From positions 32,001-96,000 of IMG/VR virus record IMGVR_UViG_3300042502_001732: a stretch of DNA of 64,000 nucleotides, one strand, 5' to 3'. This DNA is from a virus. Positions 29,130 to 59,402 of the stretch are shown piece after piece (position 1 is the first letter of the stretch; each line of letters opens with the position of its first letter). Position numbers and translations under genes: made by a program. The notes beneath the pieces were generated by a model. That model did not search any database. It was not told the origin of the DNA and was given only the letters and a program-made list of their open reading frames with translations.

Positions 29130-30581
29130 ATGAAACCTAATTCCCCAGTTAACGAAAGCAGAACTGACGCTCTTGTAAAGAAGTGGTCAAAGGTTCTGGA
29201 TTATAGCAGCAATGCTATCCCAGCAATCCGCGACGAGCACACTTACAGAACTACAGCTATGCTTCTCGAAAACCAAGAACAATGGTGCATCCAAGAAGCG
29301 AATACTGGTACTGGTATCTTTGGCGCTACTGGCGCTCAAGGCCCATCAACCATTCCTAACACTGACGGTTATGCCGCTGGTGATAGTCGCCTTCCAAAGA
29401 TTCTCATTCCTATGATCCGCCGTACTTTTCCTGAGTTGATTTCCAACGAAATTGTTGGTGTTCAGCCAATGGGTGGTCCAGTTGGACTTGCTTTCGCCCT
29501 TCGTTATGCCTATCAGCAAGAGACTCTCGGTGCTGATGGTGTCGATGGTCGTGCATTTGATACTGCTAACCGCGCTAATGGCACTGCTTACCTTTCTGGT
29601 GCAGACGGCCTGAACGCTACCGAACTTGGTTATCAACTTCTTGACACACGATTCACAGGTACTTCTTCAAGTGCTCTCTCTGGTAACGGAGAGTGGACAT
29701 TTGCAGATGCAGACCGTGGTGTTGCAGAACTTCTTTCAAACTACGAACTGACAGGTAAAATCCCTCAGATCGAGATGAAGTTCGAAAAGACCGCTGTCGA
29801 AGCTGGAACTCGCAGACTTGCTACTCGCTGGTCTGTTGAGCTTGAGCAAGACCTTAAGAACATGCAAGGTATCGATATCGACGGTGAACTCACTAATGCT
29901 ATGTCATATGAGATTCAAGCCGAAATCGACCGTGAGGTTGTGATTCGTATGATTCAGTCCGCCATGAATGGTGGATTCGGGGCTGGTTACTCCTTCTGGA
30001 GCCCAGTAAGTTCAGACGGTCGTTGGACTGCAGAGCGTAATATCACTTTCTATCAAAAGCTACTCATCGAAGCTGGTCGTATGGCCGCTCGTAACCGTAG
30101 AGGCGCTGCTAACTTTGTTATCGCAACTCCTCGCGTTTGCACCATCCTTGAAATGCTTCCTGACTTCAAGACATTTGAAATCACTGGAAACGTTACAACC
30201 GCTGGTGTCGGAGTATCCAAGGTAGGAACTGTAGGAAGCCGCTTCACAGTATATCGTGATACACGTACCGAAGTACAAAATCAAACTCTCTATTCACCGA
30301 ACTACTATCGCAATAGTCCAAATTCTGGACAAGGCGTTGAGTATGCTCTTCTTGGATATAAGGGTTCTGAGTACTACGACACTGGTATCATCTATTGTCC
30401 TTACATTCCGATCATGGTTCAAAGAACCATCGGACCAAATGATTTCGCTCCTCGCGTTGGTCTCATGACCCGTTATGGAATCGTTAATAATATCTTTGGT
30501 GCGAATCTTTATTACCATCTGATCATTGTTAAAGGTCTTGGTGCAGCATTTACTCCTGGTACAGTTTCCACATACTTATAA
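29130..30581 (+). CDS. major capsid protein (gp23-like)
   Basis: LLENQE, VGVQPMGGPVGLAFALR, ELEQDLKNMQGID, YCPYIP, MTRYG. Confidence 0.97.
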   Translation: MKPNSPVNESRTDALVKKWSKVLDYSSNAIPAIRDEHTYRTTAMLLENQEQWCIQEANTGTGIFGATGAQGPSTIPNTDGYAAGDSRLPKILIPMIRRTFPELISNEIVGVQPMGGPVGLAFALRYAYQQETLGADGVDGRAFDTANRANGTAYLSGADGLNATELGYQLLDTRFTGTSSSALSGNGEWTFADADRGVAELLSNYELTGKIPQIEMKFEKTAVEAGTRRLATRWSVELEQDLKNMQGIDIDGELTNAMSYEIQAEIDREVVIRMIQSAMNGGFGAGYSFWSPVSSDGRWTAERNITFYQKLLIEAGRMAARNRRGAANFVIATPRVCTILEMLPDFKTFEITGNVTTAGVGVSKVGTVGSRFTVYRDTRTEVQNQTLYSPNYYRNSPNSGQGVEYALLGYKGSEYYDTGIIYCPYIPIMVQRTIGPNDFAPRVGLMTRYGIVNNIFGANLYYHLIIVKGLGAAFTPGTVSTYL

Positions 30582-30703: not shown

Positions 30704-32254
30704 ATGGATATAAAAACTATCATTCAAAAAGAATCTGATGAAAAGTACAATGGATCTTTTAGATTTTTCAAAGAACAAAACTTAAAAAAGTTGGTAAGTG
30801 AAAAGGGATTTAAATATATCAAATCTAAAATTTCTGAAGATTTACATTTTCCTATATCTTTAATGGTATATTGTTTTGTGAATGACATATACAAACATCC
30901 CACATGTGTCTGCGGAAATAAACAAAAATTCAACACTGCTAAAAAAGAATTTTCAAAATATTGTTCTAATAAATGTAGATATGAAAATTTTTCAGATATT
31001 ATATCTGTTAGACAGCAAACAAATTTAAAAAAGTACGGATCTACTAATGTATTAGCCAGTGAATATGGTAAGAAAAAAATATTAGAAACTAACTTATCAA
31101 AATACGGTGTTTCTAATTACACAAAAACTAAAGAATTTAAAGAAAAAGTTAAAGGTAAAAGTAATTTAACTTCCGATGGTAAGAAAATGTTAATTGAAAA
31201 AATAAAAAGAAAACATTACGATTCCATTTTTACAAAGTATACAAATTTTATTCCATTGTTTAAATTTGAAGAATATGATGGAGTAAAAGGATATAAAAAA
31301 TATCCATGGTTTTGTAAAACATGTAACTCTAATTTTATATCATCTTTTGATAATGGTTGTGCTCCTATATGTGATAATTGCAAACCTAAAGGAACAGATT
31401 TAGAAATATTCATTAAGAAGTTTTTGGATAAATATAAAATTGAATATATATTCAGATATAGAAAATTAGAATCTGGAAGAGAAATTGATTTTTACATACC
31501 TTCTAAGAATTTAGGAATAGAAACCAGCGGATTATATTGGCATTCAACTGCAAATAAAACATATTCAAAAAATGATCATATTTCTAAATTAGAAGAATGT
31601 GAACATCAAGGAATAAATTTAATAAATATTTTCGCTGATGAAATTTATAACAAACCTAAAATTGTAATTAATAGATTAAAAAGTAAATTAAGTCTTGTAA
31701 AAAGAAAAATACCAGCCAGAAAATGTCAAGTTGGAAAAATTAGTAATATTCAATGTGAACATTTTTTAAAAAAATATCACATACAAGGAAGTATCAAAAC
31801 AAATATTAAATATGGCTTGTTTTATAAAACTCGTTTAGTTGCAGTTATGACATTTAACAAAGGAAGATTAGCAACTGGTAACAAATCAATAAATGGAATT
31901 TTTGAGCTTGGTAGATATGCAACAATAGCCAATTTTAATATTGTTGGAGGTGCTGGTAAATTATTATCTTTTTTCAAAAATCAACACAGTCCAGAAAAAA
32001 TTTATTCATATGCAGATAGAAGATGGAGCAATGGTAATCTTTATAAAAAATTGAATTTTAAATTAGATAAAGCAACTATTCCTAATTACTGGTATGTGAA
32101 AGATTTCAAAAACAGACTACATAGATTAAAATTTCAAAAAAATAATTTAAAACATTTTTTAAATTATGATGAACAAAAAACTGAAGAAATGATAATGAAA
32201 GAGTCTAAATTTTATAAAATATGGGATTGTGGATCTTTATTATTCATCTTATAA
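30704..32254 (+). CDS. Hef-like homing endonuclease (Zn-ribbon plus PD-(D/E)xK domain)
   Basis: CVCG/YCSNKC, EIDFYIPSKNLGIE.SGLYWHS, SYADRRWS.G..Y, IWDCG. Confidence 0.75.
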   Translation: MDIKTIIQKESDEKYNGSFRFFKEQNLKKLVSEKGFKYIKSKISEDLHFPISLMVYCFVNDIYKHPTCVCGNKQKFNTAKKEFSKYCSNKCRYENFSDIISVRQQTNLKKYGSTNVLASEYGKKKILETNLSKYGVSNYTKTKEFKEKVKGKSNLTSDGKKMLIEKIKRKHYDSIFTKYTNFIPLFKFEEYDGVKGYKKYPWFCKTCNSNFISSFDNGCAPICDNCKPKGTDLEIFIKKFLDKYKIEYIFRYRKLESGREIDFYIPSKNLGIETSGLYWHSTANKTYSKNDHISKLEECEHQGINLINIFADEIYNKPKIVINRLKSKLSLVKRKIPARKCQVGKISNIQCEHFLKKYHIQGSIKTNIKYGLFYKTRLVAVMTFNKGRLATGNKSINGIFELGRYATIANFNIVGGAGKLLSFFKNQHSPEKIYSYADRRWSNGNLYKKLNFKLDKATIPNYWYVKDFKNRLHRLKFQKNNLKHFLNYDEQKTEEMIMKESKFYKIWDCGSLLFIL

Positions 32255-54470: not shown

Positions 54471-54501
54471 ATGGTTGTATGTTATTCTAGTTTCTTACTA
54501 C

Positions 54502-58317: not shown

Positions 58318-58482
58318 TTAGTCGTCAGCGTGGTGAGTTTCCATTAGTTCAGCAAGATAGCCGCGAATTTCATCAGCGGTTTCGCTTTCTCCTCCAGAGT
58401 ATTCGTTAACAAGATCGAGAGCTTGATTGGCGATTTCCTCAAGGGCTTCAATTGTGTTTAGTAGTTTTTCGATTGTGGTCAT
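58318..58482 (-). CDS. 54-aa acidic helical protein
   Basis: MTTIEKLLNTIEALEE...HHADD; ATG 6 nt after TATACT. Confidence 0.65.
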   Translation of the reverse strand: MTTIEKLLNTIEALEEIANQALDLVNEYSGGESETADEIRGYLAELMETHHADD

Positions 58483-58520
58483 GTCAATAGTATAGTTTAG
58501 TTTCTTATTAGTGAAAGTGT

Positions 58521-58618
58521 GCTCCCCGCTAGGAGTCGAACCTAGGCTTCCAAGCTATCAGCAAAGCTATCCATGGTTTGCTTTGCTTTAGTGTTTGGTG
58601 TGCCAGCGCATCGGGGAG
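58521..58618 (-). ncRNA. non-canonical tRNA-like RNA
   Basis: Acceptor stem CTCCCCG/CGGGGAG; T-arm CTAGG-TTCGACT-CCTAG; 8-bp central stem; no encoded CCA. Confidence 0.6.
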
Positions 58619-58645
58619 GTGAGCTTATTGTAAGTTAGTTTTTTA

Positions 58646-59128
58646 TTAGACGCTGGCAGGAATTTCTTCGTCCTCGTCGTATTCGACAAAGTTAAAGTTT
58701 TCTTTTGCAAACTCCGTGACATCAGCATCATCGACTTGGTTGTCGTCAATTTGACCTTCGGAGATGATAGCAGTCCCAGCAAACCAGCAACCGCTCTCAA
58801 AGTAGTCCAGCGTGAATTGATCGTTTGGAAACATTTCAGACAAAGCGGCAATGGCTTGAAGTGGTGGACTCCAAGCAGTCATAAAGGTTGCTTGAAAGTC
58901 TGCGATCTCGGAGATGAGTTGGTCAGCAACTTCACGCTGCTCTTCTTCGCTCAAGTCCCATTTGGTTCCCCAGTTTTCAAGTCTCCAATCATACCATCCA
59001 TTGCCCTCAAGCAATTCGGGTGGCGTGGGTTTGATCTTCTCAAAAGAAAGACCATTTTCTTTTAGATAGCTTTCCAATTCTGGACTGCAATCCATGATCG
59101 ACAATTTGTTTTCGCACCAGTTAGGCAT
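58646..59128 (-). CDS. DUF1281/YubB ferredoxin-like protein
   Basis: MPNWCENKL, WYDWRLENWGTKWD, F.TAWSPP, Y.E.GC.FAG. Confidence 0.8.
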   Translation of the reverse strand: MPNWCENKLSIMDCSPELESYLKENGLSFEKIKPTPPELLEGNGWYDWRLENWGTKWDLSEEEQREVADQLISEIADFQATFMTAWSPPLQAIAALSEMFPNDQFTLDYFESGCWFAGTAIISEGQIDDNQVDDADVTEFAKENFNFVEYDEDEEIPASV

Positions 59129-59153
59129 AGTAGTAGTATAGTTTAGTTTCTTA

Positions 59154-59402
59154 TTAGTTGATCTTCATCAAAGAAAGAAGTTTCAATGTGATTGGCTTTT
59201 CAGCAACATGGAAGAAGAAACCATATTCCAAAACCTCAATGTCGCCATCGACTTCGGCAAGAGAAATATAGTCATCGCCGTGATTATCAGCAACGAATGG
59301 GCCTTCGTCATCATAGCCGATAAAGTAAAGCGTATCGTTTAGATCGACAGCATAAGCGTCACCAAGTTCTTCGTGTAGTTGTTCAAGTGTGGTTGTTTGC
59401 AT
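59154..59402 (-). CDS. acidic hypothetical protein
   Basis: 82 aa between motifs. Confidence 0.7.
   Translation of the reverse strand: MQTTTLEQLHEELGDAYAVDLNDTLYFIGYDDEGPFVADNHGDDYISLAEVDGDIEVLEYGFFFHVAEKPITLKLLSLMKIN

Follow-up and report, generated by a model that had tools for sequence, protein, structure and literature searches.

A small family of non-decoding tRNA-like RNAs with a self-complementary loop in predicted early cassettes of aquatic T4-like phages

The window analysed here is a stretch of 64,000 nucleotides (nt) of a virus record from IMG/VR (IMGVR_UViG_3300042502_001732, positions 32,001 to 96,000). The record, which is 138.7 kb long and estimated to be 66% complete, encodes portal and major head proteins of the T4 type; the major head protein is only 34% identical to those of the nearest deposited phages (Synechococcus myoviruses), and full-identity copies of the stretch are present in 17 freshwater/lake DNA runs. 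The major head protein gene (29130-30581) is followed, after 123 bp, by the gene of a 516-aa HNH homing endonuclease (phrog_3339; 30704-32254, plus strand). Eight true tRNA genes, all encoding an N-CCA end, are located ca. 11-19 kb from the element described below. Some 4 kb past the end of the window (G000:C1:99561-99843, minus strand, in L006) there is a true tRNA whose D and T arms are normal and which ends in ACCA; its anticodon loop (CUUUAA region) is split by an insert of ca. 207 nt. Relaxed ARAGORN assigns it the suppressor-type anticodon UUA, and no Rfam group I intron or tRNA matched it at gathering score.

Between window positions 54479 and 63855, ca. 23 minus-strand copies of a motif, AAACTA[AG]-NN-TAnnnT, are found. 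When motif coordinates were compared with ORF starts, the TAnnnT hexamer was seen to end 6-9 nt before the ATG of small genes in at least eight units, too close for a Shine-Dalgarno sequence to fit between and consistent with leaderless mRNAs. No -35 box was found at the motif. The array looks like a series of cassettes, each with one putative promoter, that would give rise to leaderless or near-leaderless early mRNAs. One of the units is taken up by a tRNA-like element on the minus strand, whose neighbours are small same-strand early genes without informative families. As the original prediction had it, the unit lies between two motif copies. The upstream copy, AAACTAA-NN-TACAAT, occupies 58627-58641 (minus strand), its hexamer ending 8 nt before the first nucleotide (nt 1) of the putative RNA; the next promoter-like motif (58489-58503, minus strand) serves a 54-aa gene (58318-58482) and marks the end of the unit. 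No intrinsic terminator was found in the unit, including the sequence before the next motif.

The element begins with the 5′ strand of the acceptor stem (nt 1-7, 58612-58618; all parts are on the minus strand), which pairs perfectly with the 3′ strand (58528-58522) over the seven base pairs that had been predicted. A 13-nt linker (58599-58611) stands in place of a D arm. There is no D stem in the sequence, and the RNAalifold consensus of the family described below predicts none, in agreement with the initial reading. A UGG in this linker is invariant in 10/10 sequences; it is the probable equivalent of G18/G19 and, by analogy with tRNA, may contact the T loop at the elbow. Next come the 5′ strands of three helices: CCAA of P2a (58595-58598, partner 58550-58553), CUA of P2b (58589-58591, partner UAG at 58555-58557) and the 5′ strand of P2c (58580-58587). 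The latter forms, with 58567-58560, the expected 8-bp central stem, closed by the expected 12-nt loop (58568-58579) with a self-complementary centre CCAUGG (58571-58576). The 3′ strand of P2c (58560-58567) is followed by UAG of P2b, one unpaired nucleotide and UUGG of P2a (together 58550-58557). The T arm (58529-58545) can be read directly as a perfect 5-bp stem with a UUCGACU loop (TTCGACT in DNA) that is invariant in the family. Downstream of the 3′ strand of the acceptor stem (58522-58528) lies a conserved 3′ tail (58513-58521), C-ACAC-UUUC in this copy; the discriminator C (58521) is followed by ACAC, so that no CCA is encoded, as stated originally.

Several features set the element apart within its genome. 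Its 18-nt T-arm string occurs once in the window and in none of 100 shuffles. Across the 138.7-kb record, T arms whose next 7 nt can pair with a 7-mer located 47-73 nt upstream are confined to six of the eight true tRNAs and the tRNA-like element, and a T-loop scan of the record retrieved elsewhere only true tRNAs. There is only one copy in the record, as judged by blastn (word size 7), nhmmer --max and the covariance model R1. The GC content of the family is 0.48-0.56, and that of the window is 27-41% in 4-kb bins. The single-sequence fold is modestly better than those of shuffles (z = -2.1). In the window copy a 7-codon ORF begins at nt 8; it is missing in homologues and was set aside.

Homologues were sought by two routes. 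A diverged homologue turned up in three copies (nhmmer E ~1e-10) at loci fetched via the gene of the 160-aa neighbour protein, and further copies were recovered from IMG/VR and metagenome contigs with degenerate patterns built from conserved positions. The family comprises ten distinct sequences, i.e. that of the window and nine homologues, from aquatic phage contigs (L073, L013 type, L055, L056, L064, L057, L060, L065 and L067). Each contig has one copy, and R1 scores are 115-129 bits, with E-values that are only rough. In IMG/VR, three differently designed patterns returned the same five contigs or three of those. Among 50,697 deposited phage genomes no homologue was found, only T-arm matches to real tRNAs, and pattern matches in one genome per prokaryote species and in unrelated metagenome contigs scored at most 17.5 bits with R1 and are not homologues. 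The tRNA-like family is a small one of aquatic T4-like phages, unmatched in Rfam 15, by ARAGORN and in the literature searched. A large IMG/VR catalogue of candidate structured RNAs includes some tRNA-like motifs without functions (PMC10690425), among which the family may be represented.

The ten sequences were aligned with MAFFT (alignment A2), and consensus helices were taken from an unbiased RNAalifold run. The parts follow each other in the order acceptor stem, 13-nt unpaired linker, an arm of P2a (CCAR with YUGG), P2b (CUA with UAG) and P2c (8 bp), 4-nt linker and T arm. The D and anticodon arms have thus given way to a rod of 4 + 3 + 8 bp (ca. 15 bp) with a variable loop of 10-12 nt on its 8-bp stem, and what is kept is the top half of a tRNA: the 7-bp acceptor stem, the T arm with UUCGACU and a GG-bearing linker for the D arm. 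The cloverleaf with a variable arm GCTT-GG-AAGC that had been drawn for the element has to be given up. The letters are present, but a 2-nt loop cannot fold, only 45% of family cells pair in this way, and the 3′ bases of the supposed arm instead pair with CCAA at 58598-58595. As they form the 3′ strand of P2a, the structure is not a cloverleaf. A D hairpin UGG/CCA was also considered and rejected, a coupled C-to-U and G-to-A change in L013 favouring P2a.

Compensatory changes on both sides are present in 13 of the 27 pairs of the ten-sequence alignment (five of seven in the acceptor stem, two of four in P2a, five of eight in P2c and one, U-A to G-C, in the T stem), some of this covariation being phylogenetically linked, since there are only ten distinct sequences from few related lineages. 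Paired cells amount to 94.1%, versus 33-48% in slid controls with 3′ partners moved by 1-3 columns, and the observed covariation was reached by none of 500 shuffles. In P2a, 97.5% of cells are paired, with changes of C-G to U-A and G-C to A-U; P2b is invariant, which neither supports nor contradicts its pairing. The homologues, in which the original prediction had proposed to look for covariation, thus display compensatory changes and not decay.

The window and L073 copies differ at five positions in 98 nt, two of the differences turning Watson-Crick pairs of P2c into G-U, and the whole stretch 58354-59158, which is mostly the 160-aa gene, is 73.6% identical between the two (blastn). Likewise, L013 and L015 are 97.6% identical in the element and ca. 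83% in its surroundings. The tRNA-like element is far better conserved than its flanks. A decaying tRNA pseudogene, or a functionless chance fold resembling a tRNA, would account for the failure of tRNA finders to recognise the element, for the missing D stem, for the absence of CCA from the window copy and for the absence of the element from several close relatives. This explanation is largely refuted by the compensatory changes in every helix that varies (P2b being invariant), by conservation above that of flanking genes and by the recurrence of the same non-cloverleaf fold in diverged lineages, and we regard it as extremely improbable.

ARAGORN and Infernal/Rfam had been suggested as checks at the outset. 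Default ARAGORN called no tRNA or tmRNA in the window or for any homologue, and Rfam 15 at gathering scores gave no match for the window element or any homologue. With E-values of up to 10 allowed, the only Rfam match was a partial one of 15.5 bits (E 2.7) to the mascRNA/menRNA tRNA-like family (RF01684), whose gathering score is 42.5 bits; it covers the T arm and the acceptor 3′ strand, the 5′ acceptor strand of mascRNA being aligned to part of P2c. The tRNA (RF00005) and tmRNA models of Rfam gave nothing even at this setting. An intron-containing tRNA, which the original prediction had named as the finding that would speak against it, is obtained only formally. When introns were allowed and the threshold was lowered to 95%, ARAGORN forced a tRNA-Ile(GAU) with a 25-nt intron onto exactly 58521-58618. 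We rejected this model, which has a D stem of one pair, a weak anticodon stem and a U33 that is not conserved, the position being U, A or C across the family. The central claim made for this locus, that it encodes a tRNA-like but non-decoding RNA, is borne out by the absence of a D stem, of a 7-nt anticodon loop, of a conserved U33 or anticodon and of any default detector call.

A special-purpose tRNA could still be aminoacylated, either decoding after removal of the central hairpin or donating its amino acid outside the ribosome, in which case it would be charged via acceptor-stem identity. Some synthetases can charge minihelices, and the acceptor/T-arm minihelix is intact here; the 3′ tail reads N-R-CCA-C-UUU in seven of the ten sequences, and the forced tRNA-Ile(GAU) model may also be counted for this explanation. 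However, an extra nucleotide precedes the CCA in the tail, and the CCA is degenerate, and thus missing, in the window and L013-type copies, whereas true tRNAs of the same phage encode N-CCA in eight cases out of eight. The one-pair D stem and the variable position 33 count against decoding, and we know of no splicing route for a 25-31-nt insert in bacteria or phages. As for charging, pair 3:70 is C-G in 10/10 sequences (alignment columns 8/100), with no G3:U70, and at 1:72 the sequences have G.A, U-A or C-G, so that a stable identity signal cannot be made out. A special-purpose tRNA is therefore very unlikely.

The fold has the topology of the tRNA-like domain of tmRNA or, put differently, of a D-armless tRNA with an anticodon arm that is threefold over-long. 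The correspondence with tmRNA extends to the acceptor stem, the 13-nt stemless D loop, the long helix, the 4-nt variable linker and the T arm, and the RNA might therefore mimic the tRNA-like domain, bind SmpB (perhaps EF-Tu) or enter stalled ribosomes, and so interfere with trans-translation or exploit it. Against such a role, the invariant C-G at 3:70 means that the alanine identity element G3:U70 is absent, there is neither a tag reading frame nor pseudoknots, the ARAGORN tmRNA search and the Rfam tmRNA models were blank as described above, and no SmpB gene was found in the 138.7-kb record (66% complete). We consider mimicry of tmRNA quite unlikely. Genes of a CCA-adding enzyme and a TROVE protein were likewise not found in this record. 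A search of the record with T4 Rnl1 gave no match, and its control likewise gave no match.

Five distinct loops cap the rod in the family, and all five have a centred self-complementary core of 4-8 nt: CCAUGG, UCAUGA, CGCG, UGCA and AGCUAGCU, with four different tetramer cores. A centred 4-nt palindrome has a chance of 1/16 per independent loop. The flanks are conserved as R-A-A ... A-U-A (G-A ... U-A in the 10-nt form). Two central loop positions switch jointly between A-U and G-C; since they are adjacent, this joint switch cannot reflect an intramolecular pair. Between the window and L073, a coupled change of C..G to U..A flanking the core turns CCAUGG into UCAUGA. The simplest reading, which we infer from the sequences, would be selection for intermolecular loop-loop pairing, i.e. 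a kissing-loop homodimer; cofold energies make such a homodimer feasible only in the sense of possible. Alternatively, the palindromic centres could originate from templated correction of quasi-palindromes. That the loop varies freely save for its self-complementarity makes it less likely that one particular anticodon loop is mimicked, which was the leading idea of the original prediction (a decoy for anticodon nucleases), and directs attention to the conserved top half; this variation is compatible with a decoy or inhibitor of enzymes that act at the acceptor end or the elbow. An exact complement of the 12-nt loop at window positions 31301-31312 is taken as a chance match, being inside the 516-aa HNH ORF and not at a start codon.

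The stem together with the loop centre is a near-perfect palindrome, and the centres are 4-6-bp palindromes like the sites of dimeric DNA enzymes, which raises the question of whether the conserved entity is a DNA quasi-palindrome (a site for a dimeric protein, a cruciform or an origin element) with a secondary likeness to tRNA. Protein sites conserve sequence, however, while here the sequence changes and complementarity stays. The asymmetric loop flanks are conserved, G-U pairs, which are meaningful in RNA only, replace Watson-Crick pairs in P2c of L073, L013 and L056, and the acceptor stem, T arm and P2a covary too, for which a DNA site provides no rationale. A DNA-level function is thus highly improbable.

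The surroundings of the element differ between phages. The gene of the 160-aa DUF1281/Api92-like protein is directly upstream of it only in the window and L073; in L013-L015, the element is located 1.5-1.9 kb upstream of this gene, and in five other contigs a gene of a Lys-rich 125-aa protein precedes it. The two proteins are unrelated, and neither belongs to an informative family. The 125-aa protein (L064:3939-4316, plus strand) is helical in its N-terminal part, has a long basic tail rich in Lys and Ala, and lacks any Pfam or PHROG match; genes of its homologues end ca. 62 nt before the element in L057, L060, L066 and L067. It could be a nucleic-acid binder, one that is unlinked to the element in the lineage of the window. 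No conserved protein partner adjoining the element was found across the loci compared. The element is missing from five closely related contigs (15-85 kb). In close relatives (L008:3484-3882), the slot of the element is occupied instead by a 113-aa ORF with a HELAH (HExxH) motif, which we read as cassette replacement between otherwise collinear phages; a GC hairpin with GAAA as its loop is found before this ORF. The shifts in position, the absences and the replacement in the slot together characterise the element as an exchangeable accessory early cassette.

We also compared the ends of the putative RNA across the family. In the window, L073, L015, L056, L057, L060, L064 and L067, a TAnnnT hexamer is located 6-8 nt before nt 1; in the last six of these it is 6-7 nt before G1 and is mostly TACAAT/TATAAT, and TAACTT in L015. 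Start codons of neighbouring cassettes are at the same distance from their hexamers as nt 1 of the RNA. With this spacing, the transcription start of most variants would coincide with the mature 5′ end. The -10-like hexamers of L055 and L065 are only 1 nt away from nt 1, and the sole hexamer of L013/14, a poor one, precedes it by 1-3 nt; these copies would depend on co-transcription and 5′ processing. We infer that the 3′ tail is a processing site or a free end; its AC/UUU junction presumably resembles an RNase E site, and processing by RNase P/Z is possible. In related phages, a second repeated motif, which begins AAACTGCTCTAGAGAG and contains an AGAGA/TCTCT inverted repeat, flanks the units (L056:279-330, L055:5848-5900 and L013:1450-1494), and a hairpin with a UUCG loop is present downstream of the tRNA-like RNA in L055 and L056. 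Three RNA-labelled runs (contigs only) yielded short pieces of the relatives' neighbouring genes, none of which spans the element.

The arrangement of the ends bears on whether the element acts in cis, as a processing or stability signal that is cut by RNase P and RNase Z/E and separates or stabilises early mRNAs without any function in trans. RNase P and RNase Z recognise a tRNA by its acceptor/T-arm minihelix; the unit has no terminator, the next promoter motif comes 17 nt after the element, and for L055 and L065 there seems to be no promoter of their own at the right spacing. Processing signals of this kind may be likened to the t-elements of plant mitochondria (PMC1920247). On the other hand, only one of the ca. 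23 cassettes contains such an element, and close relatives do without it. In most variants nt 1 is at the expected transcription start, which leaves nothing for RNase P to remove. Nor does a signal in cis need a conserved 15-bp rod, internal loops or loop self-complementarity maintained via double substitutions. We therefore consider a purely cis-acting element unlikely.

Our preferred explanation, to which we assign a probability of about 0.5, is that the locus is the gene of a non-decoding tRNA-like RNA of ca. 100-106 nt, which is made as an early transcript, forms a kissing dimer and acts in trans on a protein that reads the tRNA top half. With the phage promoter motif driving it, the RNA would be an independent early transcription unit whose start coincides with nt 1 or lies no more than 2 nt away, and its 3′ end would be made at the conserved tail by host tRNA-type processing. 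It is predicted to adopt an L-shaped fold with an over-long arm that would be unable to work on the ribosome, and two molecules may be joined by a loop-loop kissing helix of 4-8 bp. Such a dimer would offer two tRNA top halves in trans to a protein recognising the acceptor, T arm or elbow; candidates are a tRNA-handling factor and a host defence or toxin directed at tRNA, any of which would be titrated or blocked during host takeover. Judged by its sequence, the RNA is probably a non-decoding mimic of the tRNA top half, and probably dimeric. A stoichiometric decoy would face competition from very abundant cellular tRNA. We tentatively suggest, as a specific version that is rather less than probable, that the palindromic kissing-loop dimer serves as a bivalent sponge or inhibitor for a host protein that is oligomeric and recognises tRNA by its acceptor/T-arm end, e.g. 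an abortive-infection toxin that modifies tRNA ends or cleaves tRNA.

Phage tRNAs and tRNA repair are now viewed as counter-measures against tRNA-targeting immunity, and RNA-based anti-defences are recent finds. The family described here is compact and supported by covariation; it keeps the part of tRNA that is read by processing enzymes and acceptor-end toxins, drops the parts needed for decoding and adds an apparent dimerisation device to the top half. What role a non-decoding tRNA mimic plays in a lytic DNA phage has been an open question since the stable RNAs C and D of T4, and an RNA of ca. 100 nt provides a test object for whether tRNA top-half decoys are a real strategy. A bivalent top-half inhibitor, if true, would represent a hitherto undescribed kind of RNA-based anti-defence; if merely a processing signal, the element would still define a new structured RNA family of aquatic T4-like phages.

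Canonical tRNA (RF00005) shares with the family the 7-bp acceptor stem, the 5-bp T stem, a T loop of UUCGANU type, the GG of the D region and a single-stranded 3′ tail, often with CCA; the family departs from it in lacking a D stem and a conserved U33 or anticodon, and in having a 4+3+8-bp rod with a 10-12-nt loop as the anticodon arm. In metazoan mitochondrial tRNA-Ser(AGY), a short loop takes the place of the D stem, with acceptor and T arms kept, but mitochondrial tRNAs lacking the D arm keep a 7-nt anticodon loop and decode, and the tRNA-like family does neither. The tRNA-like domain of tmRNA (SsrA), whose architecture is well established, combines a T arm with a stemless D loop, a long helix for the anticodon arm and a variable linker of very few nucleotides, as the family does; tmRNA is ca. 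360 nt long, in contrast to ca. 100 nt here, and the phage RNA has no tag ORF or pseudoknots and has C3-G70 rather than G3:U70. The bacterial Y RNA YrlA, the partner of Rsr/Ro60, is likewise a non-decoding RNA with a tRNA-like module. The ends of YrlA form the Ro-binding stem and its acceptor-like stem is closed, an arrangement that is the reverse of that of the phage element, for which there is also no Rfam match and no TROVE gene in the 138.7-kb record. Phage Ro/TROVE proteins with a tRNA-like partner have been discussed (PMC7824862). The loop itself can be compared with that of HIV-1 DIS, in which a tetramer-octamer palindrome is likewise kept while its sequence changes, between conserved purine flanks. 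In DIS-type kissing hairpins, the self-complementary sequence is central to the loop and flanked by conserved purines; unlike DIS, the phage loop is carried by a tRNA-like body in a DNA phage, and its dimer is a prediction from sequence. Species 1 RNA of T4 (rnaC) scores 11.8 bits with R1, versus 18.3 (tRNA-Arg) and 13.8 for true T4 tRNAs, which indicates no specific homology, and it differs from the tRNA-like RNA in being 139 nt long, having a 5′ extension, lying in a tRNA cluster and being co-transcribed with tRNAs. By our own reading of the T4 sequence, the 3′ part of rnaC comprises a T arm and an acceptor-type stem, and this stable, phage-encoded, non-decoding RNA of unknown function is the nearest known kind to the family described here.
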